Source: Candidatus Levyibacteriota bacterium (lineage in GTDB: Bacteria > Patescibacteriota > Microgenomatia > Levybacterales > UBA12049). From it: a stretch of DNA of 64,000 bases. This document shows positions 7,472 through 56,416 of the stretch, in pieces. How positions within the stretch are numbered: the stretch's first letter is position 1; the number at the start of each line of letters is the position of its first letter. The notes under the pieces are model-generated. The model was not told the DNA's origin and made no database searches. It worked only from the letters and a program-made list of their open reading frames with translations. The DNA lies in contig JACOXT010000004.1 of the NCBI GenBank assembly GCA_016182235.1, positions 28,537-92,536 on the forward strand. The letters are read 5' to 3'. A program made the position numbers and the translations under genes.

Positions 7472-7478
7472 TCAAAAT

Positions 7479-7817: not shown

Positions 7818-7827
7818 TTTGTCCTGC

Positions 7828-7962: not shown

Positions 7963-8075
7963 ATAAAAATTATAACAAATCCATAACGCCTTTTAAAGTG
8001 GCAAAAAAAGATATAGTCTTATCTACTTTATCCGTCTTGACAAAAAGTTATCCACATAGTTAAACTTCTTGCTAC
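7963..8075. promoter_or_regulatory. rpmH-dnaA divergent intergenic region with DnaA boxes (oriC/dnaA promoter candidate)
   Basis: A perfect TTATCCACA box lies at 8048-8056. Weaker boxes are TTATCTACT at 8019-8027 and TTATCCGTC at 8028-8036. Confidence 0.65.
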
Positions 8076-9437: not shown

Positions 9438-9579
9438 GAAAACTAACCGGCTCTTCTTATCTTGTTATTAACCACCTCTTCCACAAGATATCCACATTTT
9501 TTCCTTCTTTCAGCCTTGCTTTTTTCCACTTTTCCATATACACTACTACAACTACAAGATTATAAATATAAGTAAATAA
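9438..9579. promoter_or_regulatory. dnaA-dnaN intergenic region with DnaA-box-like sites and an AT-rich tract (alternative oriC candidate)
   Basis: ATATCCACA lies at 9488-9496 (1 mismatch) and a TTTTCCACT-like site near 9532. An AT-rich stretch precedes the dnaN start. Confidence 0.45.
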
Positions 9580-12257: not shown

Positions 12258-12260
12258 AGG

Positions 12261-14258: not shown

Positions 14259-14260
14259 AT

Positions 14261-14893: not shown

Positions 14894-14913
14894 AGTTTCG
14901 ACAAGCTCACTAT

Positions 14914-16113: not shown

Positions 16114-16214
16114 ACAAACAGCATATATCGTGAAAAATTAGATTGCAACCCCTACAAAATATATCAAATCTAATAAATTATAAGTGTTTCTGTGAAAAAT
16201 GATAGAATGAAGCA

Positions 16215-16877: not shown

Positions 16878-16889
16878 ATCCAGCGCCTC

Positions 16890-17216
16890 TCAGCAGCCGA
16901 ATCCAAATGTTTTAATGCAGGGGACTTGAGTGACTTCGAATATAAGGTTTCGTATGAAAAAAGAAAATAGAACAAGCAAAAGCCCCACAATTGCAAATAT
17001 AAGCGTGTTTCTTGCCGATTCAAGAACTTTTGGATCTCCCGCAGAATGCATATACTTATAACCGCTAAAAATTATAAATACCAATGAAGTAATTCCCACA
17101 AACATTAAAAGAGCATTTATGATATTTAAGAAAACAGCAGGAATACAAGAAAGGGTGGCAACGCCATTCTCAACACAGTTAATTTTTAAAAATTCATCCC
17201 ATTGAAACTGAGGCAT
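16890..17216 (-). CDS. T4SS pilin-like protein (VirB2/TrbC-like), paralog 1
   Basis: Two-TM hairpin with the shared motif FSGYKYMHSAGDPKVLESARNTLIFAIVGLLLV. Confidence 0.7.
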   Translation of the reverse strand: MPQFQWDEFLKINCVENGVATLSCIPAVFLNIINALLMFVGITSLVFIIFSGYKYMHSAGDPKVLESARNTLIFAIVGLLLVLFSFFIRNLIFEVTQVPCIKTFGFGC

Positions 17217-17285
17217 AATTTAAGACTAGCAGAGAGAAAGCAAAAAAACAATAGTCTACAAAAAGCGTTTGATAAGCAAGAGAAG

Positions 17286-17750
17286 CTAGGAAGTAGGAGC
17301 AACTATTTTTGGAATCTTTAGATCAGTAAGGCTCAAATCGAAGGCCGCAAGAACAAGAGAAACAATAAAAATTGCCAGGAAAACAACTATAAGTCCGACT
17401 ACAGCGGCGATAATATGGTTTCTTGCCGCCTCAACTTGATCTTTTTCTCCTCTTGAAGTTATCCACTTTACCCCTCCATATAAGAGATACAAAAGTGCAA
17501 TAACAACAGCAATTACTATAATGGCAATTACTATATTGCCTAGTGTTTTAGAAGTTTGGTTTCCACCAATTGCACATAAGACATCAAGAAAGGGATTAAC
17601 TTCTTTACCGGGTCCGACTCCAACACACGGATCCACTTCTGTTTGCGCAAATGCGGGAAAAGCTAAAAGAGGATAAAGGAATGAAGCTTGAATAAAGAGA
17701 AATAATTTCTTCATTAAATTTATAGTAGAGGGTGTTTTCGCATTTGTCAA
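17286..17750 (-). CDS. T4SS pilin-like protein, paralog 2 (likely start at MKKLFLF, nt 17714)
   Basis: It has a signal peptide plus the motif YGGVKWITSRGEKDQVEAARNHIIAAVVGLIVV. Confidence 0.7.
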   Translation of the reverse strand: MTNAKTPSTINLMKKLFLFIQASFLYPLLAFPAFAQTEVDPCVGVGPGKEVNPFLDVLCAIGGNQTSKTLGNIVIAIIVIAVVIALLYLLYGGVKWITSRGEKDQVEAARNHIIAAVVGLIVVFLAIFIVSLVLAAFDLSLTDLKIPKIVAPTS

Positions 17751-17764
17751 GGGGTATCTTAGCT

Positions 17765-18097
17765 TTAATTTGACCCCAAAAGCTTTATTCCAAAAAATCC
17801 TCCTAAAAGACTTAATATAAATATTGTGAAGAAGATAACAAGTAACCCAATAATCGCGTATCTTAATCTTTCTCTGCCGTGAGCGAATCTTTCTTTATCT
17901 CCTCCTGATGTCATCATGTTGAATCCTGCAAGGAAGATGCTATAAACAGAAAAAATAAGCGCAGCAAGAATCAAAAATTCGATGACAACAGCAATGATAT
18001 TTTGGCCTCTTGGGAAAAGCCCGCCAGTCGGCACACCAGTTGGCAAGCCGATATCTATATTCGGAAATCCCGGTATTGAAAACGCAATCTTTTCCAT
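17765..18097 (-). CDS. T4SS pilin-like protein, paralog 3
   Basis: Carries the motif LAGFNMMTSGGDKERFAHGRERLRYAIIGLLVI. Confidence 0.65.
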   Translation of the reverse strand: MEKIAFSIPGFPNIDIGLPTGVPTGGLFPRGQNIIAVVIEFLILAALIFSVYSIFLAGFNMMTSGGDKERFAHGRERLRYAIIGLLVIFFTIFILSLLGGFFGIKLLGSN

Positions 18098-18098
18098 A

Positions 18099-18195
18099 TG
18101 ATTAATGATTGATGATTTCTGATTAATGAAAAAAATAATTATATTTTCTCAATTCTATATTCTTAAATCTTTAATCATTAATCTTAAATCAATTC
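18099..18195. repeat. Inverted pair of heptamer arrays forming a hairpin between two pilin genes
   Basis: The left arm is TGATTAA/TGATTGA/TGATTTC/TGATTAA (18099-18126). The right arm is TCTTAAA/TCTTTAA/TCATTAA/TCTTAAA/TCAATTC (18161-18195). The arms are mutually complementary. Confidence 0.8.
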
Positions 18196-18199
18196 AGTC

Positions 18200-19450
18200 C
18201 TACGGATTGAATCCGGGTATATGCAAAATATCCACTCCAATTACCTGAAGTATTACAAATGAGAATATGATAAACAAAAGCCCGATGATTGCGGATAATA
18301 GCTGGCCTCGAGCCGCCTGAAGAGCTTCCGGATTTCCCTGAGATGCTATGAATCTATATCCTGAAAGAATAATCAAGATTAATGCAATTCCTCCGGCCAA
18401 CCCCAAAACTATGCTATATATACGAGTTACAAAGTCCTTAGGTTGTGTACTAATACCGCCAATCGCTGTGTTAATTGTTCTGCATATTTTGTTATCATCA
18501 TTCTCGTCGGTCGGATTTCCATTCTCGTCAACCCATTCAGTGCAAACAGCAGCATTAGTCGGCGCAATATAAATATCGAAATTTACACACTTATATCGGG
18601 TGACATTATCTTCTACCGCAAATCTGCAGACTTTTCCCTCGGGACAGTTGTTTTTGCCCGGATCGCACTCAGATGTTCCCGGAGGGGCAGGTCGACAACA
18701 AAACTGTCCATTACAATCATCGCTTTTTCCTAAAAGTAGTGCGCCAGCAAAGATTGGACATTCGGAGGCTTTATTAACACAGATATCAGGAGAACTGCAA
18801 GTCACAAGAGTTTTTTGGCAGCATATTTCAGATTTACCACAATAATTTTCTCTTGGTCCCAGCGAATTTCCTCCATCGTTGCGACATTCTCCTTCTGATG
18901 CACAATAATTAGGAGATAGGCAAGCCGTTCCCGGATCTGGCGGAGCTGGTTGGCAGCATATTTCAGGACTCTCACATTTCTTATCTACTAGTGGACTTCC
19001 GTTATTTGTTTTACATTCATCACTTGATGTGCAATAATTGGGGACTGAACACAATTGTTGAATTGGAATTGGGGTGGGGGTGGGGGTAGGAGTAGGGGCA
19101 TCAGCACATTGTAAGGCGTTGCAAAAATTACTGCAGCATTGATTGTTTTGTATACATCCCTTGCCGTTTGATTGGCAGAATGGAGTTGGAGTAGGCGTAG
19201 GTTTGCCGGTTGGGGTGGGAGTGAGTGTTGGAGTAGGAGTTCGTGTGGGCGTTGGGGTCCCGAATTGGTGGGGACAGCTATTGTTCGGATCATCGCAATA
19301 CTGTCCGAAGTCATCTCTTAGACACTGGTCGTTAGGGGAGCATGTGTCAGCGCCGCAGTTGCCATTACAGTGACTTGCTTGCGCGGAATTTACAGGAACT
19401 AAAAAAAGAAGTAAAAACAAAAACAAACCAAATAATACCTTAATCTTCAT
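18200..19450 (-). CDS. Secreted Cys-rich modular protein with a C-terminal T4SS pilin-like domain (pilin fusion)
   Basis: It has a signal peptide, PT linkers, and three CxxP(N/D)xC...EC...(I/F)CC(Q/R)P modules. The C-terminal motif is LSGYRFIASQGNPEALQAARGQLLSAIIGLLFI. Confidence 0.7.
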   Translation of the reverse strand: MKIKVLFGLFLFLLLFLVPVNSAQASHCNGNCGADTCSPNDQCLRDDFGQYCDDPNNSCPHQFGTPTPTRTPTPTLTPTPTGKPTPTPTPFCQSNGKGCIQNNQCCSNFCNALQCADAPTPTPTPTPIPIQQLCSVPNYCTSSDECKTNNGSPLVDKKCESPEICCQPAPPDPGTACLSPNYCASEGECRNDGGNSLGPRENYCGKSEICCQKTLVTCSSPDICVNKASECPIFAGALLLGKSDDCNGQFCCRPAPPGTSECDPGKNNCPEGKVCRFAVEDNVTRYKCVNFDIYIAPTNAAVCTEWVDENGNPTDENDDNKICRTINTAIGGISTQPKDFVTRIYSIVLGLAGGIALILIILSGYRFIASQGNPEALQAARGQLLSAIIGLLFIIFSFVILQVIGVDILHIPGFNP

Positions 19451-22202: not shown

Positions 22203-25200
22203 ATGAAACAGGAATTATTGAACCAAACCTTGACAAGCCCACCTCAAACACCCTATTCTAGGGATGGAGCTATTTTTATGGAGGTAGTGAAAGATATGCC
22301 TAATTCCGCAAACCAACCCAAAAACCCAGAGAGAACAGAAAATAGGCCTTTAGATAAAGTAAGGGTAGAAGTAAACAACACATCCAAAAAAGAAGAAACT
22401 TCTTCAAAATCTCCCCAGTCAGTTTCCGAAGAAAAGAAGGGGTCTCCTGTCGAAGCAAAAATTACAAAAGTCGATTCTAAAAAAATAGATAATGAGGAGT
22501 TAAGAAAAGAATGGCATAAAGTATTTACACCAGAAGAGTTAAAAAATCCCGATACAAGATCAACTATAGAATTAGCTATCAAACTGGGCTATAGTCCTGA
22601 GAGCATTACATCAAAAGGCCCATTGGAATTTAAAGCAAAAGATGTTATCGCAAATGCTTTACTTGATGATCAACAGCGCATTGAGAAGGCTGAAGAACTG
22701 CTTGGGCGATCTTTGTCAATAAAACAACGAGAATTACTTCTGAAAGCACACTATGCATCAAAAGGTAAGACTGGTAAAGATGGTCGTGGGGCAGGAGTGT
22801 TCAATTTAGAAAGAAAACAACTTGCAGAAGAAGCAAGGATACTTAGTAACGAAGAAGGTTTTACTGACAAAGAAAGACGTATACTTATTGAAGCTGGTCT
22901 AGCAGCAACTCTTATTCCTAATATCTATACGGATCCCACTTTGCAACTTATTGCCGAACAATACATTAATGAGGTAAACCGTATAAATGCAACTAATCCA
23001 AGTGAACATGTAGACCCCAATTTTCTCATTCGACTAATGACTGATGTTGAAAGACGAGCTCGTGACGGCCTAGTAGACAGAACGCAAGCACTAAATCTAC
23101 TAAATGAATTTCAAACCATATTTGCTGATGAGAATCCTGCTCAAGGAGAGAGCCCTTTGACTAGAGAGATTAATCTAATCAAAGGTCTGCAAGGACAAGA
23201 CAGAAGGGATGCATTACTTAATTTATTGAGGGCTTATCCTCCCCTGAGTGCTCCTTTACCGCACGAAATTATAGAATTAACAATGGAGGATGATGAATCC
23301 TTTGAATCCTTAGTCAATAGAATTGTTTCTCTTCCACTTGACAAAGAGACCTCTGACTATACTCTCGGACTCTATGGCTCAGGAAATCTTGAAACGATTA
23401 GCGATGCACTTACTCAAAAATTAGATACTGAGACAGATCCCGATGAGAGAGATAGACTTAGTAGGTTAAAAGATAGATTTAATCTGGCTACAGAATCATT
23501 TACTTTAACCCACAATATGAATACTCGAATAGTCACTGGAGAAATACAGGAATTTATTCGTACCGCGGAAAGAATTCTACCCCCTCATCTTAATTATCTT
23601 CAAAAATTAAACGGTGTAAGCGAAGCGATGAGAATTTATGAAGAAACCTATGATAGATATCTTGCAAAGTATGGATGGATGTATCCTTTTGCATCAGTAC
23701 TATTGCATTACGAAGTTTTCAGCAAGCTAAGAGAACTAAATGATGCGGGGGGGCTTGGCGTAGCAAAGGCAATGGATGGGGAACTAAGATTAATAAAACT
23801 GGAAGAGTGGGAGTTAAGAAGAGCATATAATATAGCAAGAAAATTTTATAACAATACATTTAGATCATCAGAAAAAGTTGCTACCGGGACAGTCCCTCGC
23901 AATATGGAAGGTGAGGAGAGACAGGAAATATTGGCAGAAATCCAAGACGCGATAGATTCAGGAAACACAAATAAAGAGGCTTTACTTAGAAATGAACTGG
24001 CTGACGCTGAAGAAAGGGGACAATCTAGGTATTCTTCTTTTGCGTTAGAATCAGCTGCCAGAATTATGAATCCAATACAGCTTCTTATATATCGTTTTCA
24101 AATAGCGGGTGAGGAACATGGATTGGTTTTCCTTAAAAAAGCAAAAGAGTACTATCTAGAATTTTTGAGACATAACTATAAACTTGGAATAAATAAAATA
24201 ACCACTCTTGGTGGGGTAAACGTTGAAGAGATGGAGGTTGGAGGAGTATTTGGGGTTTCAGGATTCTATAGTTCATGGAGAACAGAAAATATCGCCATAA
24301 GCCAGATGAAAGTTAATATTGGTGGACAGGAATTAACAATAAGAAGATGGTTAGCGGAAACTACATATGAAATTGAACAAGCTAATACGGCATTCAAAGA
24401 TGCAGGGCAGAATAGACAGTTAAAGCATAACGCGCAAGTACAATTAGCTGATGCCCTAAAGCCCCTTATTGATAATGTTCATGTTGGATTAGGCATGTTG
24501 TTAAGACAGCCAGCTTTTGGTGGTGAAATAGGTTATGAAGCAAGAAAGTTACTATGGGAGAAAATTGTGAAAGGAAATGATCCAGCAAACAATAATCCAA
24601 GGGAAGGAAATCTAGATGTAGCAATAAACTATTTAACAAAGTTAAAAATTCAGGATGGAAGTATAAGATCACTAGAAGAAATTAAATCAAGTGGTGGAAA
24701 TTATTGGGACGTTCCTTCAGGAGACCCATTGACGACTCCATGGGAAATACTGAGAAGAAAAATTCTTTTGCAACATCAGAAAAATATTAGGAAATCGTTT
24801 GATACTAATGTCAATTTAATTCCTGATCAAGATTTTGATGCAAATGAAACTCGTTTAATACTTACAATTAAAGAAGAAGGCAGAAAGCTCGCTCAACATC
24901 TGGCCGACATATCATTTCCATATGTACCCTTCATGAATGACGCGCCTTTCGAAATTTTTGATTATACGCTGGCAGGAGACGAGGTTTATAGAAGAAGGGC
25001 AGGAGGAGATATACCTAGCTATTTTGAAGGGTCTAACGCGTTTGTGGCTATTGTTGATAATCCTGGCGGAATTGGTGATGAAAAAGCAATGGAGAATTTC
25101 CTTAAGCTTGAAAGAGGAGTTGAATCTCCTCAAGGACGACCAGATGCCCAAAGAAGAACATACCCACTTTTTAAAGCTTGGCTAGAATGGGTAATGACCA

Positions 25201-25502
25201 AGCCTGGACAAAGACAAGAGCAATTTAAAGCGATTAAGCAAACATTATTACATCCTACCTCTGAAGCACAGGAACATTCAGGTATGGAGGCAATGTCAAT
25301 AAATGAAGAACAAGCAAGAAAGTTTATAGACCATGCTGTATTAGCAAACTTTTTGAATGAGGAGCTGGCAGATGAGCTAAAAAAGGAAAAAAATCTTAAA
25401 TTTGTAGGTATGCTTTGGGCACTCTTTAGAGATATGTTTATTACAGTTATTCCTGCAGCTGTCGTATATAGCTTTGGTAAAGAGGTATTGAAAACAAAGT
25501 GA
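22203..25502 (+). CDS. Large hypothetical protein (1099 aa) with a C-terminal TM anchor
   Basis: A long uninterrupted ORF, mostly helical and charged, with no motif I recognise. The C-terminal hydrophobic helix is FVGMLWALFRDMFITVIPAAVVYSFG. Confidence 0.6.
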   Translation: MKQELLNQTLTSPPQTPYSRDGAIFMEVVKDMPNSANQPKNPERTENRPLDKVRVEVNNTSKKEETSSKSPQSVSEEKKGSPVEAKITKVDSKKIDNEELRKEWHKVFTPEELKNPDTRSTIELAIKLGYSPESITSKGPLEFKAKDVIANALLDDQQRIEKAEELLGRSLSIKQRELLLKAHYASKGKTGKDGRGAGVFNLERKQLAEEARILSNEEGFTDKERRILIEAGLAATLIPNIYTDPTLQLIAEQYINEVNRINATNPSEHVDPNFLIRLMTDVERRARDGLVDRTQALNLLNEFQTIFADENPAQGESPLTREINLIKGLQGQDRRDALLNLLRAYPPLSAPLPHEIIELTMEDDESFESLVNRIVSLPLDKETSDYTLGLYGSGNLETISDALTQKLDTETDPDERDRLSRLKDRFNLATESFTLTHNMNTRIVTGEIQEFIRTAERILPPHLNYLQKLNGVSEAMRIYEETYDRYLAKYGWMYPFASVLLHYEVFSKLRELNDAGGLGVAKAMDGELRLIKLEEWELRRAYNIARKFYNNTFRSSEKVATGTVPRNMEGEERQEILAEIQDAIDSGNTNKEALLRNELADAEERGQSRYSSFALESAARIMNPIQLLIYRFQIAGEEHGLVFLKKAKEYYLEFLRHNYKLGINKITTLGGVNVEEMEVGGVFGVSGFYSSWRTENIAISQMKVNIGGQELTIRRWLAETTYEIEQANTAFKDAGQNRQLKHNAQVQLADALKPLIDNVHVGLGMLLRQPAFGGEIGYEARKLLWEKIVKGNDPANNNPREGNLDVAINYLTKLKIQDGSIRSLEEIKSSGGNYWDVPSGDPLTTPWEILRRKILLQHQKNIRKSFDTNVNLIPDQDFDANETRLILTIKEEGRKLAQHLADISFPYVPFMNDAPFEIFDYTLAGDEVYRRRAGGDIPSYFEGSNAFVAIVDNPGGIGDEKAMENFLKLERGVESPQGRPDAQRRTYPLFKAWLEWVMTKPGQRQEQFKAIKQTLLHPTSEAQEHSGMEAMSINEEQARKFIDHAVLANFLNEELADELKKEKNLKFVGMLWALFRDMFITVIPAAVVYSFGKEVLKTK

Positions 25503-25549: not shown

Positions 25550-27172
25550 TTAACGAAACATGCGTTTGAGTACTCCTTGTATTCCTTCAGCCTTAGTAGG
25601 AGAAGGCAATTTAGATTTATAGGCAACTATTGTCCCTACAGTTTCCCTACCTATTCCAATCGCACCTCCGACTGGTGCAAAAGCAGATCCGGTCTCAACC
25701 TTTGGAGCCTTGAGCATAGCTTTGAGCATGTTGACGACATTCGGCGTCATAAGAATAATGCCAAGCCCAATTAAAGCTCCGATATGATCTTCGTTGGCGC
25801 GGGCTCCAATAAGAGGAGGAACGAACAAGGTATTTTCCGGAAATCCGCCAAAAGCTGCCATAAATACTTTTCCAAGTAAAAACATGGCAATTACAGCAGG
25901 AAATGCGGCGAGATTTGCGATCAAATCTCGGAACCATCCTCCAACATTTATCGGACTTCCAGGAATTAATCCGCCAATAATCCAAAATGGTGCTAAGATA
26001 ACATCAATTAATATATGAACATAAGCAAAAAGAAGAGTAAACCAAAGTCTAAAAAGAGCAATTAAAAGTGCAATTGAGATTATTATAAAAGCAAGAAATC
26101 CAACAAACGTACCTAGTACTACGTGAAGCATTTTGAATAGTATATCTGCAACTGCATTTGTTGCTACATTTTCTATATTGGTAATCCAATTAAGAGGGTT
26201 CCACCATGTGCCTCCTTCGCCTGCACCAGGAAGAGCCACACCAACAACTACTTTAGACACAAATGTAGAAAAACTATTTAAAAAAGGGTCATAAAAATTT
26301 GCAAGAACTTCACTAATTGCTAGAGAAGGTTCTTCTATAAGCCTCCACATTCCACCATAAGCATTTCCTCCTCCTGCGCCAACTTCTGCTGCTGCTGAGA
26401 AAGGATTAGTTTTTTGTGAAAGTTGCGTAGGAAGACTTTTGTCTAATCCAGCGGAATCAACAATAAGATTACCAATTACATGAGTTGATACATACATCAT
26501 GTCTATCAAAAACCCCGCTATAGCATAGGAAAAAGTTACAAGAAGTATGCCGATTATAATTTTGGGTATCTGGTTTTGGATAGACATTACAGTTCTAGGA
26601 TCAATTTTTACTCTAAGCATAATTGCGAGTCCTATAACAACAAATACCAAAACAAAGAAAAGATAAACGATATTTCTAAATCCTTCCCACACCCTTAGAA
26701 GTGGTTTAAGTCCTTCAAACCCAGTTCCTGTTTGAGCATAAGCTATTTTTGAAATACCGAAATTCTGCGCCAGATATTGAAAATAGTCGCCGGTACGAAG
26801 AGGGGGAGTATAAAGAGAGGCTATCAAATTGTTCATTCCTCCAATTGCTCCTCCAATCTCTCCTTTTTCCAAATCCCCTTTTGGCAAAAAACCAATTTTT
26901 CCTGTTTTCGGATCAGCTCCAAGGCAGGTGCCTTTGGGATTTGTAGGATCAATGCCTGAAATCTGGCAGGAAAGCGCGCTTGCTACCTCAATCATCACAG
27001 TCTGAGTCCAGTTATGTAAGTTATTTGGAACTTCGGGGTTGGTATTGGGAGGTGGAGGATTTATTCGGGGAAGCTCTTGAGCATTGACTGAAGTAGGAAG
27101 TAGGAAGTATGAAGTAAGAAGTAAGAGAGCAGAGAAAATGAAAACAAAAAGGAGTCGGGCAGGAATTTTCAT
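25550..27172 (-). CDS. VirB6/TrbL-like polytopic membrane protein
   Basis: 540 aa with a signal peptide and then at least 6 TM helices. The size and topology match T4SS channel subunits found next to VirB4 in Gram-positive/CPR loci. The assignment rests on context and topology only. Confidence 0.5.
   Translation of the reverse strand: MKIPARLLFVFIFSALLLLTSYFLLPTSVNAQELPRINPPPPNTNPEVPNNLHNWTQTVMIEVASALSCQISGIDPTNPKGTCLGADPKTGKIGFLPKGDLEKGEIGGAIGGMNNLIASLYTPPLRTGDYFQYLAQNFGISKIAYAQTGTGFEGLKPLLRVWEGFRNIVYLFFVLVFVVIGLAIMLRVKIDPRTVMSIQNQIPKIIIGILLVTFSYAIAGFLIDMMYVSTHVIGNLIVDSAGLDKSLPTQLSQKTNPFSAAAEVGAGGGNAYGGMWRLIEEPSLAISEVLANFYDPFLNSFSTFVSKVVVGVALPGAGEGGTWWNPLNWITNIENVATNAVADILFKMLHVVLGTFVGFLAFIIISIALLIALFRLWFTLLFAYVHILIDVILAPFWIIGGLIPGSPINVGGWFRDLIANLAAFPAVIAMFLLGKVFMAAFGGFPENTLFVPPLIGARANEDHIGALIGLGIILMTPNVVNMLKAMLKAPKVETGSAFAPVGGAIGIGRETVGTIVAYKSKLPSPTKAEGIQGVLKRMFR
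27090..27124. repeat. Heptamer array GAAGTAG x5 inside the VirB6-like signal-peptide region
   Basis: The units are GAAGTAG GAAGTAG GAAGTAT GAAGTAA GAAGTAA. On the minus strand they are translated as LLLTSYFLLPTS. Confidence 0.85.
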
Positions 27173-45769: not shown

Positions 45770-46729
45770 ATGTTAGAACTTAACTGGGTTGATTACATAT
45801 TAATAATAATTTTGATTGTATATGCCTTTGAAGGATATTCTGTTGGATTTCTTAGTGCTTTTTTAGATTTAGTAAGTTTGATTGTATCTTTCGTTGTGGG
45901 GTTGAAGTTTTATGGATTTTTTGCAAATATTTTAATTGATAGATTATCTATTCCCCAAGGCTTTTCAAACGCGATAGGTTTTTTTATCGCGGCGCTTCTC
46001 ACAGATGTTATTATTAAAGCCTTGATAAGGAAATTTTTTGCCCCTCATCCTACAATGTTTAAAGATTTAAATCATGTAATGGGGGTTTTCCCTGGGGTTT
46101 TATCTGCGACAATTCTTCTTTCTTTTTTATTGACTTTAATTGTTGCACTTCCTGTATCTTCGTATGTCAAAAACTCTACTTTCTCGTCTAAGATGGGTAA
46201 ATTCCTGGTTTCCAATACTCAGGGCCTTGAGAAAGATATTAATGAAGTCTTTGGGGGAGCAGTTAATGAGACTATCAATTTTTTGACAGTTGAGCCTAAA
46301 AGCAATGAAATATTAAGCCTAAACTTTAAAACTGCAAACTTCAGCATAGACAGAAATGCGGAAAACGACATGTTTAATCTTATAAATAAAGAGAGAGTGA
46401 ATCGAGGAATAAAACAGCTTGTATTTGACGATAAGCTAAGAGATGTTGGAAGATCGCATTGTAAAGACATGTTTGAGAGGGGCTACTTTTCACACTACAC
46501 CTTGGAAGGAAATTCTCCTTTTGACAGGATGGAAGAGGAGAATATTGTATATAGTCAGGCCGGAGAGAACTTAGCTCTTTCTCCAAATACTGATCTCGCG
46601 ATGCAAGGACTGATGAATAGTGAAGGCCACAAAGCAAATATATTGTCTTCGGATTTTGGAAGAGTAGGAATTGGAGTAATAGACGGAGGGATATATGGAG
46701 AAATGTTTTGTCAGGAATTTACGGATTAA
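45770..46729 (+). CDS. CvpA-like membrane domain fused to a CAP/SCP (YkwD-like) domain
   Basis: The N-terminus has 4 TM helices and begins NWVDYILIIILIVYAFEGY. The C-terminus has HCKDM, FSHY...G, ENL and GHKANIL motifs of CAP domains. Confidence 0.65.
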   Translation: MLELNWVDYILIIILIVYAFEGYSVGFLSAFLDLVSLIVSFVVGLKFYGFFANILIDRLSIPQGFSNAIGFFIAALLTDVIIKALIRKFFAPHPTMFKDLNHVMGVFPGVLSATILLSFLLTLIVALPVSSYVKNSTFSSKMGKFLVSNTQGLEKDINEVFGGAVNETINFLTVEPKSNEILSLNFKTANFSIDRNAENDMFNLINKERVNRGIKQLVFDDKLRDVGRSHCKDMFERGYFSHYTLEGNSPFDRMEEENIVYSQAGENLALSPNTDLAMQGLMNSEGHKANILSSDFGRVGIGVIDGGIYGEMFCQEFTD

Positions 46730-48509: not shown

Positions 48510-49616
48510 ATGAATCTGTCAACAATAGAAAAAGTTAATGTTTCCGGTAAAAGGGTTTTTGTGAGAGCGGATTTGGATGTTCCTCTTTCCGAGACACGAG
48601 ATTCGCAACACGAGACACGAAAAATTGAGGATGAGACGAGGTTGAGAGCTGTGATGCCGACAATTGAGTATCTTCTGGGGCATAGAGCAAAGGTTATTGT
48701 TGGAGGACATTTGGGGAGACCGGAAGGATTTGATAAGAGTTTAAGCCTTGAGCCAGTCGCGAAATGGTTAAGTATTAAGTATAAAGTATTAAGTATAAAG
48801 TATGGAAAACGCGGGGAATTTGACGGGTGGGAAATAACTCCAGATCTTTTCATTCTGGAGAACTTAAGATTTTATAAAGGCGAGGAGGCCAATGATCTTA
48901 ATTTTGCAAAAAAACTGTCAAGCTTGGCAGACGTTTATGTTAACGACGCGTTTGCGATGTCGCATAGAAATCATGCCTCAATTGTCGGGATAACAAAATT
49001 TCTGCCTCATTATGCTGGTTTTCATTTGGCAAAAGAAATAGAAATGTTAGGTAAAGCTATGGATAATCCAAAGAGACCGCTTGTTGTAATTATAGGAGGC
49101 AAAAAAATTGAAACTAAGCTTCCGTTAGTTCATAGGATGCATGAAATTGCCGACTATGTGCTTGTTGGGGGAAAAATTGCCCAAGAATCCAAAGTTCTTC
49201 TGAAAGAACAGCACTCAAAATTAACCGGAAAGAAATCAGTGCTTTTAGTTGCAGATTCCAACAGTGACAAGTCAGACATAACAGAACAAGATGCTGAAAA
49301 TTTTTTGCAAATCATTAATACAGCGCGTACTGTTATTTGGAATGGAAGTATGGGGATAATAAGTGAAAAGCGAAAAGTGAAAAGCGAAAAGAATGATACA
49401 GAGAGGGGAACGCGCTTGATCGCTAAGGGCATTATGGAGAGCGGCGCTTATTCTGTGGTTGGCGGAGGAGATACGGTTGAATTTTTAAATAAACTGGGAA
49501 TTTTAGATAAATTTTCTTTTACCTCAACAGGCGGAGGAGCAATGCTAGCGTTTTTAAGTGGTGAAAAACTTCCAGGCATCGAAGCCCTGTTAAATAACGG
49601 GCTATATCACGCTTAA
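48510..49616 (+). CDS. pgk: Phosphoglycerate kinase, with three in-frame heptamer-array inserts
   Basis: Motifs are VRADLDVPL, LENLRFYKGEE, FAMSHRNHAS, GGKKIETKL, WNGSMG and GGGD(T). Inserts lie at 48591-48618, 48769-48803 and 49361-49388. Confidence 0.9.
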   Translation: MNLSTIEKVNVSGKRVFVRADLDVPLSETRDSQHETRKIEDETRLRAVMPTIEYLLGHRAKVIVGGHLGRPEGFDKSLSLEPVAKWLSIKYKVLSIKYGKRGEFDGWEITPDLFILENLRFYKGEEANDLNFAKKLSSLADVYVNDAFAMSHRNHASIVGITKFLPHYAGFHLAKEIEMLGKAMDNPKRPLVVIIGGKKIETKLPLVHRMHEIADYVLVGGKIAQESKVLLKEQHSKLTGKKSVLLVADSNSDKSDITEQDAENFLQIINTARTVIWNGSMGIISEKRKVKSEKNDTERGTRLIAKGIMESGAYSVVGGGDTVEFLNKLGILDKFSFTSTGGGAMLAFLSGEKLPGIEALLNNGLYHA

Positions 49617-52079
49617 ACACCAGGACTGTCCTTCCCGATCGGGGATTTTTGAGCATTCTTTTCTTACAGTTGTCTTATTTCTGTCCCAATCCAAGATTCC
49701 ATTTCCAATTTGCTTAAAGCAAATTTCTCTATTTTGGGAATCAGTTAATAGACAAAAATCAATCATTTTCTGCATATTTCCTACAAAACGATAAGACAGT
49801 GAAGACACAACTCCTCCAACGCAAACATCTTTAAAGTGTTCCGAAGGCATCAAATCGCAATCCTTCTTCATAGTTTCTAGCGATTGCGTAAATCCGACTT
49901 GGTTTGTTCCTATGGTTCTAAAACACCTGTCTTGATATTCTTGCGGAATTTGCAGACAAAGATCCGCAACTTTTTTCCAATCCTGGTTGCTAATTATAGA
50001 AAAATAGGAACTTTGATATTGCCAGCAGAGAGATTGATATTTTTCTTCCAAGACATTGCATGGATAGAAGGGATCGTCTTTTTTGATATAGCGACTCACA
50101 TGATCAAAAGAGGTAGAGGATGAGGAATTTTCCATAAATACTCCCGTATAACATCTTTCTTTGTGTTCCTGGTTTGAAATTGAATCGCAGAGTTTTAAAG
50201 ATTCCTTAAGTTCCATTTCCGTTACAAACATTGCGGCATGTCCCATGCCGTGAAGACATTCGTTAAATTCAATAGGCTTTTGATAGTCGTTTTCACTTCC
50301 GCAAACTTTGGCAAAATTCGCATTTGAATTTCGCTTTAAATATGCCTCAAGCGTCCCGTGGTAACATCCTCCATGGCAAGTTGAATCGCACTGAGCATAA
50401 ACTTTGGAAATACTTTGCTGTTTCTCATATTCAAGGCGGGAAAGATAGTGTGTTGTCTCGTGGCAGCGTGCATAAACTTCAGTAAATTGTTCATTTTCTT
50501 TAAAAATATTAAGCGTTTTAGCTAACCCGAACTGACTGTACAAAACATCTGCTGCTTTCTTATAACATCCATCGCGGCCGTCTGATTCATAACACGTCTT
50601 CATAACCTTTCTGGTATATGAGTTAATAGCCTCAGAAGCCAGTTTTGGAGGAAAATTAATTTGCGCTTGTCGATTGTATTCCTTAATTAGCCTTTCAATA
50701 TGCTCAAGGCACTCTTTTTGACCAAAACCTACGCCATTACATACTTGAAGGGATTTCTCAGACCAGCCGGGAACTTCTTGGAAAACCAACTCTCCGGCCG
50801 CAGACTTAATGCATTTTGCTATGAATTCATCTACTCCGATTTTTTGACATCCTGTAATTATTTGTTGTGTATTACCAGTTGAAGCTAATGAAAATCCCAA
50901 AGAGTCAATGCATGCATTTTTAAATGGGCTGGAATTTGAATTAATACAGACTTTCACGACTTCGTCAAACCCCATCTTATATCTTCCCATCAAAAGGGAA
51001 GACTGATTTCTTCCGCAGGCAAATGAATAGGAATAGCCATATTTTCTCTCGAGAAAGTTACAAGGATAGTATGGATCATTGTTTTTGAAAAAGGTATCGG
51101 GCGCAGATCTTACAAATTCCATAAATACTCCGTCAAAACAATATTCATTGCCTGATGTTAATTTGCGGCATGTGATAAGTGCTTTTTCTAAATCAGAAGT
51201 TCTGTAAAAAGATGCAATCCCATGTCCAATGCCATGAATACAGCTTGCTGCCGGACCGGTAATTGTTCCCGCTTGCGAGCTTAATTTAAGACACGCATCT
51301 TGCGCGTCTAATAAATGATCTAAATTTTTAGCAAAAGCCTTGTCCAAAAATCCGTGATAACAACCAAATGCAAATTTGGCTGAGCAGTCAGAAATACCGT
51401 TAAAACCTTTTTGTTCATAAATTAAAATGCCGGATAAATGAGCAAGATCATGAATGTTGCCAGTTGATCCTGCCTCATTGCCGAAGACATCTTGTATATA
51501 TTTCCAAGAAGCTGATGGTCCATTTGCCTTGGCAATTTCCGTCAGAGTTTTGGATTGAGCATCATAGACACTGTTTTTAAATGTTTCTTTATTTGGCAAT
51601 TGACTTTGTTGTACGGATTTAGGCTTTGGCTTAAATAGATTTTTTACTTTATTTACTATATTATTAATAAAACTTTTAAATTTAGTTAGAATATTATTAG
51701 GCGGAGAAGATGGCTCCTCAGGCTTGTCTTCATCTACAACAATTATAACTCCTCTCATATGGGGAAAGTTGTGATCATGGTATTTCCATTCTCCGGCCTT
51801 TGTTGGTTTGAATGTCCATGATTCTTCTGGATCAATATTTTTCCTAGGGTCAAGCTCGGGATATATTTCGTGAGTTGGGTGGACATTACTCGCAGGCCAG
51901 CGTGGCTTGGTGTCTTTATTCACAAAGATTACAGTCGAATCCGTATCGATCATGATCTCTGAAGGAGTAAAGCCGTTTTCATTCATCTCTATAATCCTAA
52001 CTTCAGAGTGAGCTGAAGTGTTTATGGGTAAAATTAGGGATGCTATTACAAATACCAGCAGAAGGAGTATTTTTTTCAT
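49602..52079 (-). CDS. Secreted protein: cupredoxin-like N-domain plus two copies of a Cys/His-motif domain
   Basis: It has a signal peptide. The cupredoxin-like segment is FVNKDTKPRWPASNVHP...WKYHDHNFPHMRGVIIV. The motif series CYHG / C(I/L)HG(I/M)GH / GVFME / DP(Y/F)YPCN then occurs twice. Confidence 0.6.
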   Translation of the reverse strand: MKKILLLLVFVIASLILPINTSAHSEVRIIEMNENGFTPSEIMIDTDSTVIFVNKDTKPRWPASNVHPTHEIYPELDPRKNIDPEESWTFKPTKAGEWKYHDHNFPHMRGVIIVVDEDKPEEPSSPPNNILTKFKSFINNIVNKVKNLFKPKPKSVQQSQLPNKETFKNSVYDAQSKTLTEIAKANGPSASWKYIQDVFGNEAGSTGNIHDLAHLSGILIYEQKGFNGISDCSAKFAFGCYHGFLDKAFAKNLDHLLDAQDACLKLSSQAGTITGPAASCIHGIGHGIASFYRTSDLEKALITCRKLTSGNEYCFDGVFMEFVRSAPDTFFKNNDPYYPCNFLERKYGYSYSFACGRNQSSLLMGRYKMGFDEVVKVCINSNSSPFKNACIDSLGFSLASTGNTQQIITGCQKIGVDEFIAKCIKSAAGELVFQEVPGWSEKSLQVCNGVGFGQKECLEHIERLIKEYNRQAQINFPPKLASEAINSYTRKVMKTCYESDGRDGCYKKAADVLYSQFGLAKTLNIFKENEQFTEVYARCHETTHYLSRLEYEKQQSISKVYAQCDSTCHGGCYHGTLEAYLKRNSNANFAKVCGSENDYQKPIEFNECLHGMGHAAMFVTEMELKESLKLCDSISNQEHKERCYTGVFMENSSSSTSFDHVSRYIKKDDPFYPCNVLEEKYQSLCWQYQSSYFSIISNQDWKKVADLCLQIPQEYQDRCFRTIGTNQVGFTQSLETMKKDCDLMPSEHFKDVCVGGVVSSLSYRFVGNMQKMIDFCLLTDSQNREICFKQIGNGILDWDRNKTTVRKECSKIPDREGQSWCLSVI

Positions 52080-52124: not shown

Positions 52125-54824
52125 TTAATAGCCAAAGACTTTACCCAGGGAGTTATTCCAGAGTAGTTCTAATAAGCTAATTGATGTTGAGACTCCTTGA
52201 GTTCCAGAAGGTGTCGGATAGGAATAAGATTCGGAAGGTGTACCATAGGAAGGAGTGCCGTATTCTGGTGTCCCGTAAGATGGAGTTCCATAACTTGGGG
52301 TTCCATAGCTTTCAGAAGGAGTGCCGTAGGATGGCGTACCATAAGTTGGAGTTCCATATGTTGGTGAGGGATAAGAGTAGCTGGTTCCTGGCGTTGGATA
52401 GGCATACCCTGTAGATGGAGAGGGATAACTAGTATCAGAGGGCGTTGGATAGTAATAGGTGTTTGGCGTTGGGTAATAGTATCCGCTTCCGGGTGTCGGG
52501 TAACCGTAAACCGGGCTTTGATCGCTTCCTCCTGGTGTTGGGTAACCGTATGCTCCGCCGGGTGTTGGGTAGTAATACGGAGTTTGGTATACAGTACTTG
52601 GTGTTGGATAATTTGATGTTGGCGAAGTATATCCACTACCTGGTGTGTAATACGGGCTGGTATATGTTCCACCGGGCGTGTAGTAGGAAGGAGAATAGTA
52701 AGAAGGCGTTAAGTAGTTTGGAGTTATGTAAGGCGTGTAATAGCTTGGGCTTGTATACGTTGATCCAGGAGGAGGTGTGTAATAAGTAGGCGATGAATAA
52801 GGGGTGTAGTAGGAAGGAGTTGGATAAAAGCCAGGTGTGTAATATGAAGGGGTAGGATAGCTTGCCGGCGAGTAATAGCTAGGAGACGTATATGTTGATC
52901 CTGGAGGAGGAGTGTTGTAGGAAGGAGAGGTATAAGCGATAGGGGATGTGTATGTTGGAGGCGTTGGGTATGTGCCTGGAGTATAGTAATTCGGTGTTGT
53001 ATAGCGAGGTGGCGGCGTATAGTATGAAGGCGTTGTATAGTTTGATCCTACAGGGGGAGTATAGTAAGTTGGAGTTGTATAAGTTGGAGGAGTGAAATAA
53101 ACAGGTGTAGTATAGCCGCCCCCGGTGTATGGCGTGTAATACTGAGGTGTTGTATATGGTGGGGGTGTTGAATAGGTCGGAGTAGTATAGTTGGAAGATA
53201 TACCACCTTGACCGGGAGTATAATAGTAAGGTGTTGAATATTGTGGAGGTGTGTAATAATAAGGAGTAGTATAGCCGCTTCCTACCGGAGGAGTATAATA
53301 AGTTGGACTTGCATAGCTTGGTGTTGGATACTCACCGGTTGGCGTAGTATAGTTGCCCCAAGGAGTATAGTAATTGGGGGTTGGGTAATTTGATCCCGAT
53401 GGAGGCGTTTGATAAGAAGGTGTTGAATACATGCCTGGCGTGTAGTATTGAGGCGTTGTATAAGTCGATCCTGTTGGCGGGGTATAATAAATGGGTGTTG
53501 TATAAAAACTGGTTGTTGGCGGAGTCGCATAAGCTATATCACTGGGCGGTGTATAATATGTTCCGGGAATATAAGATTCGGGGGGTCTTGGAGAATTTGG
53601 ACTAAAGCCTTCGCATCCTCCCGGATTGTCCGAACAATAATCATAACATGCTGCAGGAGATGTGCATCCACCCATTGACTCAATAGGCTCATGCGTTACT
53701 TGGTCTCCGGGGGTGTAGTAAAGATATGGATTGTAACTGTCGGTTGGTCTGGAAGTAGTAGCATCAAAGCCAGGGCAGACGCTTGCCCCATTCACAAGAT
53801 TATCCTTACAATAGTCATAACATTCTCCAGGAGTTGAACAATTTCCCATCTCCGGCCGAGATTCAAAATGAGCAGATAGAATATCTGTTGCGATACCTAT
53901 TGGTGGTTGATCTTGACAAGAAGAACCATTCCAGAACTTGTCAGCTCCTACGCAATTAATCGCTTCTTGTGTTTGAGTTGGTAGGGTGCAAACACCGCCC
54001 GGGCCGTGTTGCTCGCCATTTGGACAAACTAGAGAAGCATAAACTCCGTTTGAGCCGGGCGAATAACTTCGGCAATCTTGTGGGTTTTGATCGCAGTATG
54101 TTCTGCAGCTTTCTTCACTAGTGCATCCGCCAGGACCGCTAAACGATCCGCCATCTGTTGGGGGATAGGTGTTGCAAAGAGAGAAATTAGCTGGATCGGA
54201 ACAGAAGGCAGAACATGTCTCAGCACTCTGACAGCCCCCTGGTCCTTCGGTGGTATTACCTCCCAATAACCCGACTTGACTAGCAAAATCTGAACAAGAT
54301 TGGCTGTTAGCTGGATTGTCACAGAAGGTTGCACAAGAATCTAATGAGTCACAACCCAATACATCTTGGGCGATTTCCAGAAATTCAGGCTTGTCTGGAT
54401 TTTCTGTATATCCACCTGTGATTTCATTTCTTTTCGCCCAAGCATCGCAAGCTTCATGGTTTTCCGTCTTAGAACAGAAATCCAAACATGTATCTTTGGA
54501 GTCACAACCGAACTCGTCTTTTGCGCTTTCTAAAAGCTCACTGTCATATGTGACTGGATTATCTTTATAAAAACCATGCTCTTTGGCAAACGTACTGCAA
54601 CTGTTATAGTTGACAGGGTCTTCACAATAGTTGGTGCAAGTATCAATATCGTTGCATCCGCCTAGTTCTTCAATAGGAAACGAAAATTCGGAGGAAGGAT
54701 CTGGAGAAACCTCGGGTGAGGGAGTTTGGGAGAAAACATTAGTTGCTACGAAAAACAACAAGGCTAAAGTAATGCTTGTTATAGTCAAAAATTTAATTAA
54801 ATTAGGCCGTAAAATAGTTGTCAT
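52125..54824 (-). CDS. Secreted protein: about 7 four-Cys modules followed by a roughly 480-aa Tyr/Thr/Pro-rich repeat region
   Basis: It has an N-terminal signal/anchor. The modules fit GGCxSxExCxxYCxDPxNxxxC. A long YYTP / TPSYGTP low-complexity tract follows. Confidence 0.6.
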   Translation of the reverse strand: MTTILRPNLIKFLTITSITLALLFFVATNVFSQTPSPEVSPDPSSEFSFPIEELGGCNDIDTCTNYCEDPVNYNSCSTFAKEHGFYKDNPVTYDSELLESAKDEFGCDSKDTCLDFCSKTENHEACDAWAKRNEITGGYTENPDKPEFLEIAQDVLGCDSLDSCATFCDNPANSQSCSDFASQVGLLGGNTTEGPGGCQSAETCSAFCSDPANFSLCNTYPPTDGGSFSGPGGCTSEESCRTYCDQNPQDCRSYSPGSNGVYASLVCPNGEQHGPGGVCTLPTQTQEAINCVGADKFWNGSSCQDQPPIGIATDILSAHFESRPEMGNCSTPGECYDYCKDNLVNGASVCPGFDATTSRPTDSYNPYLYYTPGDQVTHEPIESMGGCTSPAACYDYCSDNPGGCEGFSPNSPRPPESYIPGTYYTPPSDIAYATPPTTSFYTTPIYYTPPTGSTYTTPQYYTPGMYSTPSYQTPPSGSNYPTPNYYTPWGNYTTPTGEYPTPSYASPTYYTPPVGSGYTTPYYYTPPQYSTPYYYTPGQGGISSNYTTPTYSTPPPYTTPQYYTPYTGGGYTTPVYFTPPTYTTPTYYTPPVGSNYTTPSYYTPPPRYTTPNYYTPGTYPTPPTYTSPIAYTSPSYNTPPPGSTYTSPSYYSPASYPTPSYYTPGFYPTPSYYTPYSSPTYYTPPPGSTYTSPSYYTPYITPNYLTPSYYSPSYYTPGGTYTSPYYTPGSGYTSPTSNYPTPSTVYQTPYYYPTPGGAYGYPTPGGSDQSPVYGYPTPGSGYYYPTPNTYYYPTPSDTSYPSPSTGYAYPTPGTSYSYPSPTYGTPTYGTPSYGTPSESYGTPSYGTPSYGTPEYGTPSYGTPSESYSYPTPSGTQGVSTSISLLELLWNNSLGKVFGY

Positions 54825-55084
54825 TTACTTACTACAAAAGGATTTTTATACGTGTCAAATGGATTAACGTATTGAGTTTCTTTAGCAAACGGGTTTTTAT
54901 ATTCGGTTTTAAGCTTAACTTGTGCTTTTTTCTCAAGAAGCGGGGACGTAGGAAGCCCTGGAACTTTAATAACTCCCAAAAGAAAACCAATTGCAACAAT
55001 AAGGAGCGTAACTAATATTCCTATTCTGACTGACTTTTTCTTAAATACTCCTCCGACAACCTCTCTATTCAACTGATTATCCAT
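54821..55084 (-). CDS. Small membrane-anchored protein with three NPF motifs
   Basis: 87 aa with one TM helix. The C-terminus is YKNPFAKETQYVNPFDTYKNPFV. There is a 4-nt overlap with the downstream gene. Confidence 0.45.
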   Translation of the reverse strand: MDNQLNREVVGGVFKKKSVRIGILVTLLIVAIGFLLGVIKVPGLPTSPLLEKKAQVKLKTEYKNPFAKETQYVNPFDTYKNPFVVSK

Positions 55085-55151
55085 TTTGGTTAATATATTA
55101 ATTAAAGAACTGTTTATTCTAATTTGTCAAGCTGGTAAATTGAAGCTAAAA

Positions 55152-56324
55152 TTAGTTAGATAGATTGGAGATCTGACCAAAACACTGATTGTTAAAAGGA
55201 GATTCGATTTTTTGACAGAGCATTTGTTTTTGGTTTACGTCAATTGGATCTGAGGCAATTTGCCCAATTACTCTTTGGTAGCATTCATCTTTTAGGTGAG
55301 GAGGGACATTTTGACAGATAAATATTGCTTCGTCTCGACCTCCAACAGAGTAAAATGATCCGGCATTAACAACCAAACAATCATCGTACCAATCTTGTCC
55401 TTCTTGTTGGCAAAGCTCAAATGATTTTGCAGGATCTCCTAGGGTCAGAGGATGGATTTGTCTTGCGACATTATCCATGCACCAAGCTTCATATTCTTCA
55501 TTTTCAACCGTTTGGCAAAGCTCTGATGTTTTGACTATGTCTCCGTTGTTCATTTGGTAGATTCTTGCTGCCTGATTTAGCCAGCAGCCTCTTTGATATT
55601 TTTCGGGAAAAGCATTACAGGGGAAATAAGGGTCATCTGATATCCAGTCTCGTATTTGTTCTTTACCCGTACCCCAATCATGAACACCAAAAAGATTTTC
55701 CATAAAAGCGCCGTTATGGCAGGACGATAAGGCTTCAGGAAACTGAGCTTCTTTTTCATAGAGCTCATCGCAAGTTGTGAGTGCCTTGGGCAATTCATAA
55801 TTCCACATGGCAAGTATTGAGTGTCCGGCGGCATGGACACATTGAAAATAACGAACAGAAGACTCCTTGCATTTGTCAGTCATCTTTTCAATTGCTTCAA
55901 ATCCCTGGTCTGAGGCTGCCTCAATTATTGTTCCGTGATAACATGCGTAGAGAAAATAGTCTTTGCATTTGAGAATCGAATCAGCGCCGTATTTTTTGTA
56001 AGCAAAAAATCCGATTTGATGTACGACTAAATGTCCCTCTCCTGTATGAGGAAGAGGAGAATGTTCTAGGATTTCTAGGGCTTCCTCCACATCTACTCTT
56101 TCAACGAGTTTCCTTGCAGCCTTTAGTCTTTTTTCTTGATCTTTAGGATCTAATATATCTTTCATCTCCGGAACGTCTTTATAAGAGGTTGAAGTTATTT
56201 GAGTTTCTGCAATAGGTGCGGACTTAATAAGGGTTTTGCTCCACTTATTAATCGATGGGGTTGCGTTTACTATTCCAGCCAATAAACCGCCTAACAAAAT
56301 AATTATAACTATCTTTTTTATCAT
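55152..56324 (-). CDS. Secreted protein with a single copy of the Cys/His-motif domain (paralog of 49602-52079)
   Basis: It has a signal peptide and the motifs ACYHGTIIEA, CVHAAGHS, CHNGAFMEN and DDPYFPCN. Confidence 0.6.
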   Translation of the reverse strand: MIKKIVIIILLGGLLAGIVNATPSINKWSKTLIKSAPIAETQITSTSYKDVPEMKDILDPKDQEKRLKAARKLVERVDVEEALEILEHSPLPHTGEGHLVVHQIGFFAYKKYGADSILKCKDYFLYACYHGTIIEAASDQGFEAIEKMTDKCKESSVRYFQCVHAAGHSILAMWNYELPKALTTCDELYEKEAQFPEALSSCHNGAFMENLFGVHDWGTGKEQIRDWISDDPYFPCNAFPEKYQRGCWLNQAARIYQMNNGDIVKTSELCQTVENEEYEAWCMDNVARQIHPLTLGDPAKSFELCQQEGQDWYDDCLVVNAGSFYSVGGRDEAIFICQNVPPHLKDECYQRVIGQIASDPIDVNQKQMLCQKIESPFNNQCFGQISNLSN

Positions 56325-56416
56325 TGAGTCAGAACTCGCAAATTAATTATACATTTTCTGATATAACTGTAAATACCCTCTTGTCCCTAAGTTTTTAAAC
56401 CCTTATACTATATTAT

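Follow-up and report, generated by a model that had tools for sequence, protein, structure and literature searches.

Among described surface proteins, the closest in layout to the one considered here is Sbi of Staphylococcus aureus, whose helical N-terminal domains are followed by a proline-rich and then a tyrosine-rich region and which associates with the envelope non-covalently, without an LPXTG motif (PMC3378709). The protein we investigated has 899 aa and is encoded on the reverse strand of a 64,000-nt stretch of contig JACOXT010000004.1, hereafter the window. Like Sbi, it has a signal peptide, small helical repeats in its N-terminal part and a tyrosine-rich C-terminal region, and it carries no LPXTG motif. 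The two differ in that the helical domains of Sbi have no disulfides, its tyrosine-rich region is short, it associates with lipoteichoic acid, and it has no partner with Asn-Pro-Phe (NPF) motifs; there is no sequence similarity between them, and they are not homologous. With the LPXTG adhesins (ClfB/MSCRAMM proteins and internalins) the 899-aa protein shares a head, a low-complexity stalk, a C-terminal signal logic and, by prediction, Sec export; however, the LPXTG motif, a membrane-spanning hydrophobic segment and a sortase linkage are all absent. In general kind it would be a tethered bacterial surface protein with a low-complexity stalk, and it belongs to a large undescribed family.

The frame at 52125..54824 is genuine and uninterrupted as a gene, and it comes from an uncultured bacterium living in groundwater (Levybacteria, Candidate Phyla Radiation, CPR). 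The original prediction, a model's reading of the DNA, had described a surface protein with seven four-Cys modules and an extended tract dominated by Tyr, Thr, Pro, Ser and Gly, had taken the open reading frames (ORFs) in alternative frames for artefacts of the repeat, and had pointed to a 4-nt overlap with the gene of an 87-aa anchor protein. All of this is borne out. The ORF list and the translation give a single frame from ATG to stop; seven modules of the form C-x5-C-x3-C-x6-10-C start at aa 57, 107, 158, 198, 234, 329 and 387; residues 421-899 are 87% Y/P/T/S/G (Y 22%, P 22%, T 21%, S 13%, G 9%); and the start codon shares ATGA (...AAATGA...) with the stop of the 87-aa gene. The alternative-frame ORFs are by-products, because the frame that encloses them is conserved to homologues at E = 1e-179. 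Absent from that prediction were the conserved two-gene cassette, the C-terminal VQG motif with its amphipathic helix, the large unnamed family and the Cys/His-rich proteins that flank the cassette. The two products encoded upstream (the 87-aa partner and p390) are 100% identical to HYT07_03765 and HYT07_03770 of a Candidatus Levybacteria metagenome-assembled genome (MAG). Both are present in a collection of 15 billion proteins from which the 899-aa product is missing on exact look-up; it thus seems that the source annotation did not release a protein for its gene. An exact look-up of p390 gave no entry as well.

The reading we favour, with moderate confidence, is that of a Sec-exported, disulfide-stabilised envelope protein that is tethered non-covalently: its head would dock on an anchor with NPF motifs, and its tract would form a disordered stalk or matrix.

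The cysteine-module head and its NPF partner

A search with the head recovered 181 homologues (best match 66% identity, E = 1e-179), all of them named hypothetical and without a Pfam domain. They come from the Microgenomates lineages Daviesbacteria, Levybacteria, Curtissbacteria, Gottesmanbacteria, Roizmanbacteria, Woesebacteria, Blackburnbacteria and Chisholmbacteria. Exhaustive searching with phmmer extends the family to 1494 cluster representatives at E <= 1e-3, of which 1157 reach E <= 1e-10. The family arrangement, a signal peptide followed by (T/I)FPIxELGxC and at least five C-x5-C-x3-C-x6-10-C modules, is present in the window protein (aa 47-251). Proteins of the 7-module branch have 800-975 aa and the Tyr-rich tract, those of the 5-module branch have other small Cys motifs and P/Q/S/T linkers, and distant members contain 7-10 very regular modules of ~45 aa (GPGGC-x5-C-x3-C-x8-C-x2-FA-x3-G...), in some cases fused to Laminin_G_3 or Big_13, domains typical of extracellular proteins. 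The 7- and 5-module branches are paralogues able to sit side by side, since both occur on one Daviesbacteria contig; there, a second, 5-module cassette (88-aa NPF gene and 621-aa protein; locus L001, 13396..15524) lies just after the homologue of p825, the downstream neighbour. Many TPA 'binchicken' MAG records with a Microgenomates-type cassette (L006-L080) are titled 'uncultured Gammaproteobacteria', which looks like a placeholder or mislabel. For ten distant members, no names came out of a look-up of their clusters, and we found no description of the family or of the NPF partner in the literature. Pfam, NCBIfam and PADLOC scans of the protein, the partner and both neighbours gave nothing besides Cupredoxin_1 in p825. 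The 35 families reported as enriched in Microgenomates by Méheust et al. (2019; PMC6744442) are mostly hypothetical as well.

A signal peptide is present in all family members, the (A/S)-Q junction that follows it is conserved among homologues, and AlphaFold2 (AF2) places a helix at aa 9-30 of this region. The signal peptide in all members, together with the Laminin_G_3 and Big_13 fusions in distant ones, argues for export and an extracellular place, in line with the surface location first proposed. The modules themselves are not a product of composition: 5000 shuffles of aa 1-420 gave a mean of 0.07 and a maximum of 2, against the seven found. The 20 Cys of the first five modules are invariant across a 64-sequence alignment, and the protein has 32 Cys in total. 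Four extra Cys at 267/279/291/303, with a spacing of exactly 12, belong to a small separate domain. Every domain has an even Cys count, the modules contain no conserved His, and C-x3-C lies on one helix face. AF2 predicts two short helices per module (pLDDT 84-94); for the head as a whole, modelled with the 64-sequence alignment, the mean pLDDT is 76, the linkers are weak and the pTM is 0.33. The head is acidic, with 57 D/E versus 14 K/R and a net charge of about -43. No PDB neighbour of the head was found by fold or by sequence, a family-profile sequence search included.

The gene preceding the large one on the same strand encodes a transmembrane (TM) protein of the ~80-aa class with at least three NPF motifs. 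That this 87-aa protein is a partner is upheld by the conserved adjacency: wherever a related locus includes upstream DNA (about 80 such loci were checked), an NPF gene lies directly upstream on the same strand. In the scan of related loci, which used an alignment of 14 sequences, the motif identified the upstream NPF gene in 69 of 73 loci, and tblastn found it in 73; of the four loci that the motif missed, two are cut at the 5' end. The exact 4-nt overlap of the two genes recurs in 44 loci. Five of five distant members (GC 41-63%) also have a gene for a TM protein with (NPF)3-5 upstream, and three of these keep it although they have no C-terminal helix. The partner therefore goes with the Cys-module array.

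In the partner products (~75-95 aa) a basic N-terminus precedes a single TM helix, and a variable linker leads on to a tail of the form Y-x-NPF-x-K-x-(T/A)-QYVNPF-x-x-YKNPF, with 3-5 extracellular NPF motifs across the related loci. The Y, the N-P-F (x3) and the Q are invariant in 22 aligned partners, whereas the paired head proteins are only 51-74% identical. The charges are complementary, the head being acidic and the partner tail Lys-rich, and the NPF-bearing peptide EYKNPFAKETQYVNPFDTYKNPF is a candidate ligand for the head. By analogy only, the arrangement resembles eukaryotic NPF-EH recognition, in that a repeated Asn-Pro-Phe in a flexible tail is the likely docking element for a small helical domain. 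EH domains, however, are EF-hand pairs without disulfides and are cytoplasmic, and no homology between the module array and EH domains was detected. We also considered the small protein as a precursor of a ribosomally synthesized and post-translationally modified peptide and rejected this, since a TM helix is present and the gene has no linked modifying enzyme.

The tyrosine-rich tract

Over aa 405-876 the tract is made up of 73 units that end in [S/T]-P, 70 of which are Y-x-[S/T]-P; shuffles of the same composition contain 8.2 +/- 2.6 of the latter, with a maximum of 21. Units of 5 aa (xYYTP) alternate with units of 9 aa (PxGSxYTTP), and (S/T)YGTP units stand at the end. Tyr occurs about every 4.5 residues, with an autocorrelation peak at 5. 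There is no Lys, His or Cys, and 11 of 472 residues are charged. The AF2 model of the tail (21 sequences) has a pLDDT of 31-50 and no secondary structure over the whole tract, which supports the extended tract of the original prediction as an unstructured one.

A repeat tract of 1.4 kb could also be an assembly collapse, expansion or chimera, in which case the length of 899 aa would be wrong as well; the original prediction had named a collapse or expansion as what would overturn it. We consider this very improbable. At the DNA level the repeats are only 60-80% alike and long exact copies are lacking; TRF reports three arrays of ~2 copies only. A Logan contig, an independent assembly from run SRR12113430, is 100% identical to window 52548..55285 (2,738 nt) and covers 1,017 nt of the tract. 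It stops inside the tract at aa 759, and the last ~420 nt, the hardest to assemble, rest on the assembly of the window itself and on the matching architecture of the orthologues: in 19 complete orthologues, each set in a MAG of its own, the tails are colinear with this one and 401-564 aa long, as compared to 495 aa here. The frame is open throughout and finishes in the conserved tail of the family. Besides the break in the Logan contig, an artefact could be argued from the missing database entry, given that both neighbours are present, and from an in-frame TGA within the tract of a Daviesbacteria orthologue.

That orthologue (JACPKP010000006.1; L001 8001..10700, the same as L024) has a single TGA at codon 565, followed by 335 further open codons up to a VQG-type tail, and was called as a protein of 564 aa and a separate 156-aa ORF. 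The TGA could be a sequencing error, a recent pseudogene or a case of read-through.

The tails of the orthologues are 66-82% identical to the tail in the window, whereas shuffled tails reach 44-47%. At a pN of 0.12-0.17, the tract shows less amino-acid change than the head (0.22-0.26), and silent sites are saturated (pS 0.67-0.86). Colinearity, conserved length and low pN with saturated silent sites together indicate that the tract is an old sequence under constraint at the protein level. By these measures it is neither a loosely evolving repeat nor a mere spacer, and purifying selection on it is at least as strong as that on the folded head. An alternative explanation is that the tract is a passive, composition-driven spacer and that all function resides in the head. 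This would agree with the lack of structure in the AF2 model, and with the sister subclade, which fills the same position with different P/Q/S/T-rich linkers and small Cys motifs. However, members of the subclade can be aligned along the tract one unit after another, in the same order, and the length of the tract stays within the range of the orthologues; its amino acids change less than those of the head although silent sites are saturated; and composition would yield 8 Y-x-[S/T]-P units, not 70. We therefore regard a passive spacer as quite unlikely.

Several known protein matrices share features with the tract. Extensins are O-glycosylated and cross-linked through Tyr. Like them and other plant hydroxyproline-rich glycoproteins, the 899-aa protein is predicted to be secreted and extended and is rich in Pro, Ser, Thr and Tyr. 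Assignment to that class nevertheless failed: SPPP is absent (0 matches) and the tract has no Lys, though Y-x-Y is present 10 times. The protein also differs from extensins in being bacterial and in having no linked peroxidase. Short degenerate repeats that contain Tyr and Pro are likewise found in mussel foot proteins and resilin, and the (S/T)YGTP units at the end of the tract recall resilin-like xSYGAP units. In contrast to the Lys-rich mussel proteins, the tract has no Lys; a chitin-binding domain is absent, and no tyrosinase is encoded close by. In the mussel proteins, cohesion or cross-links arise from the chemistry of Tyr (PMC4220933). As in FG-nucleoporin and FUS-type domains, regular aromatics stand in an S/T/G/P background of near-zero charge and predicted disorder, so that on composition and prediction the tract has the properties of a cohesive low-complexity domain; the aromatic spacing suggests multivalent aromatic cohesion. 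Those domains, however, are intracellular and eukaryotic and carry Phe-Gly or [G/S]Y[G/S] motifs. Collagen-like repeats (0 runs of three G-x-x) and repeats like those of the C-terminal domain of RNA polymerase II (0 Y[ST]P[ST][ST]P[ST] heptads) were both rejected.

The C-terminal element and the sorting question

Nearly all complete Microgenomates members end in a VQG-type tail, with the consensus V-Q-G-[VAI]-[ST]-T-x-[RK]-x-[FL][FL]-Q-x-[IL][LW]-D-[FL][LF] and 16-21 residues past the Gly. In the window protein the (V/T)QG-x-(S/T) motif and the helix typical of this branch are found in TQGVSTSISLLELLWNNSLGKVFGY. AF2 predicts the terminal helix at a pLDDT of 60-68. The tail has a mean hydrophobicity of 0.35, includes polar and charged positions and ends in ...GKVFGY.

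One could assume that the 899-aa protein is sorted covalently to the wall, and that VQG with a hydrophobic and basic tail is a new signal for a sortase- or exosortase-like enzyme. The tail does have a tripartite look, with a motif, ~12 hydrophobic-rich residues and K/R in the last three residues (59% of tails); it is placed behind a low-complexity stalk, as in LPXTG proteins; over half of CPR genomes carry a sortase (PMC6744442); and a sortase gene follows one distant cassette. We nonetheless consider this explanation decidedly unlikely. The 899 aa contain no LPXTG-like motif (0 matches to LP.[TSA][GAN]) and match no NCBIfam LPXTG model, there is no PEP motif, and PEP-CTERM and other NCBIfam sorting-domain models do not match the tails at E <= 10. 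The sole NCBIfam matches are chance ones (E ~ 1) to the Pro/Ala-rich linker of another family member, P0050. The hydrophobic stretch is short and polar and unfit to span a membrane, and the C-terminal span of ~20 residues with a basic tail that such sorting would lead one to look for is absent from the 899-aa protein. No candidate sorting enzyme is linked to the cassette. Within 684 kb of related DNA, moreover, this type of tail is confined to the Cys-module proteins (46 proteins) and occurs on no other cargo, which makes a family-specific docking or surface-binding helix likelier than a general sorting signal.

The sortase gene in question (L085 1953..2639) lies directly downstream of a distant cassette whose large protein (P0225) has neither LPXTG nor the amphipathic tail.

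Neighbouring genes and wider meaning

The features of the locus are collected in Table 1. The upstream neighbour, p390, has no Pfam match and 358 homologues, all named hypothetical; in 28 loci of the Tyr-rich subclade it precedes the cassette, with an identity of 52-86%. A strong match to p825 (38-74% identity) lies downstream of the cassette in at least 20 loci of the same subclade. PDB sequence searches with the two gave nothing meaningful. They flank the cassette solely in the Tyr-rich subclade, and this distribution is suggestive of a functional link to the tract. The best promoter-like site lies upstream of p390, so that a transcript of four genes is possible.

Table 1. Features of the locus, with positions in the window
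Feature	Positions	Strand	Basis
Whole gene, 899-aa protein, predicted to be secreted	52125..54824	-	ORF list and translation; 181 homologues
Signal peptide, aa 1-32: basic n-region R6/K11, hydrophobic core, ...VFS/Q	54729..54824	-	sequence reading; cleavage site inferred
Core head, aa 50-252: five 4-Cys modules and following helices	54069..54677	-	alignment columns, AF2
Small 4-Cys domain, aa 267-303: C-x11-C-x11-C-x11-C, conserved GPGG and W298	53916..54026	-	
Module 6 (CSTPGECYDYCKDNLVNGASVC), limited to the 7-module subclade	53775..53840	-	
Module 7 (CTSPAACYDYCSDNPGGC)	53613..53666	-	
Y-x-[S/T]-P tract, aa 405-874 (~470 aa)	52203..53612	-	pattern versus shuffles, AF2, orthologues, independent contig
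C-terminal element, aa 875-899: TQG-VS-T..., then amphipathic helix aa 884-896	52128..52202	-	family consensus, AF2
Partner gene, 87-aa single-pass membrane protein: TM aa 21-39, basic residues before	54821..55084	-	
Extracellular NPF region of the partner, aa 61-87: EYKNPF-AKETQ-YVNPF-DT-YKNPF-VVSK	54824..54904	-	
p390, secreted Cys/His-rich helical-repeat protein (CYHG..., CVHAAGH..., CHNGAFMEN...)	55152..56324	-	upstream neighbour
p825, signal peptide, cupredoxin domain and two p390-like domains	49602..52079	-	downstream neighbour; Cupredoxin_1 E = 1.8e-8
Best promoter-like site, TTTACA-16-TATAAT	56346..56373	-	consensus match only; site count not above shuffles

The Cys/His-rich neighbours bear on a further reading of the head, in which the four-Cys modules bind Zn, Cu or an Fe-S cluster and the locus is an extracellular metal or redox system, its Tyr possibly redox-active. 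Four invariant Cys per module, with C-x3-C on one helix face, would suit such a role, and so would the flanking genes, one of them with a cupredoxin domain, whose conservation is limited to the Tyr-rich subclade. However, judging from the signal peptide, the protein would be exported by Sec in the unfolded state, the number of Cys is even in every domain, and the modules have no conserved His. The cupredoxin domain of p825, though its fold match is significant, lacks the full set of type-1 copper ligands (His-Cys-His-Met): compared to amicyanin, Cys92 is replaced by Asp and His95 by Phe, with the first His and the Met retained. Most cassettes, those of the 5-module subclade and of the distant members, do not have these neighbours at all. 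In addition, CPR bacteria possess a machinery for disulfides, an MdbA-like oxidoreductase and VKOR being enriched in them (PMC6744442). A metal-binding head therefore seems unlikely to us.

In the tethered-protein reading that we favour, both cassette proteins would be made together from one transcript, usually with translational coupling, and the large protein would be exported via Sec, with the signal peptide cut at ...VFS/Q. MdbA/VKOR-type machinery would then oxidise the 32 Cys to 16 disulfides, so that the seven helix-hairpin modules, together with a small knot, are stapled to form an acidic head. The acidic array would dock on the basic NPF peptide of the type-II membrane partner, resulting in a non-covalent tether to the outer face of the membrane without a sortase. 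The uncharged Y-x-(T/S)-P tract would stay unfolded as a wall-spanning, self-cohesive stalk or matrix, perhaps O-glycosylated or cross-linked through Tyr. The terminal VQG motif and amphipathic helix would provide a second contact, be it with the membrane surface, in oligomerisation or with another partner. The protein may have a role in envelope structure or adhesion.

Several points weigh against this reading. The pTM of the head model means that the modules are predicted with confidence and their mutual arrangement is not, and the contact between head and NPF peptide is one we infer from pairing, conservation and charge. The terminal helix has neither the length nor the hydrophobicity of a transmembrane anchor. 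A stalk that is no more than a passive spacer is hard to reconcile with the strong purifying selection on the tract. Instead of forming disulfides, the four Cys of a module could bind metal, albeit with low probability. Finally, the window shows no glycosyltransferase, oxidase or sortase linked with the cassette, and no glycosyltransferase, tyrosinase, laccase or sortase adjoins the gene there, which bears on the glycosylation and Tyr cross-linking that the original prediction had raised as possible.

The window also carries dnaA, dnaN, yidC, a cluster resembling a type IV secretion system (T4SS), two class A penicillin-binding proteins (PBPs), PGK and GAPDH. This is a chromosomal housekeeping context; given this context and the lack of a PADLOC match, a phage or defence element was rejected. 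The stretch 6171..10722 is the chromosomal origin region, with KhpB/R3H, YidC, a gap of ~600 nt (7472..8075) that is likely oriC, dnaA and dnaN. The T4SS-like cluster (10719..19450; GC 0.43 versus about 0.36) comprises a TraG/VirB4-type ATPase, a PrgI-family protein, two T4SS_pilin-domain proteins and several ORFs without a match. Two large ORFs, at 22203..25502 (+; 1099 aa) and 25550..27172 (-; 540 aa), lack any Pfam match. The gene at 45770..46729 (+) joins a CvpA (Colicin_V) membrane domain with a CAP domain and represents the CAP-domain membrane family that, according to Méheust et al., is widespread in CPR bacteria and hardly found elsewhere (PMC6744442).

A wider interpretation, possible but doubtful, is that the NPF anchor and the disulfide-stapled repeat protein constitute an unrecognised, widespread tethering system of the CPR, in which docking of a peptide in a repeat array replaces sortase anchoring, and that the tract of Levybacteria and Daviesbacteria is a cohesive or Tyr-cross-linked surface gel. 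Such a gel, maybe matured by the flanking p390 and p825, would serve wall integrity or attachment to host cells. The CPR, or Patescibacteria, make up a large share of bacterial diversity and live attached to other cells, and their envelopes consist largely of proteins of unknown function. The locus gives one hypothetical CPR family a testable anatomy: an obligate two-gene cassette, a candidate ligand with NPF x3, a new helical repeat, probably disulfide-stapled, a conserved terminal helix and, in one branch, a regular uncharged Tyr-rich tract under purifying selection. A recombinant head with a synthetic NPF peptide, and the purified tract, are handles on how ultra-small bacteria without classical anchors tether proteins to their surface and build structures there. 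If cohesive or cross-linked, the tract would rank among the rare bacterial analogues of protein matrices of the extensin, resilin or FG type.

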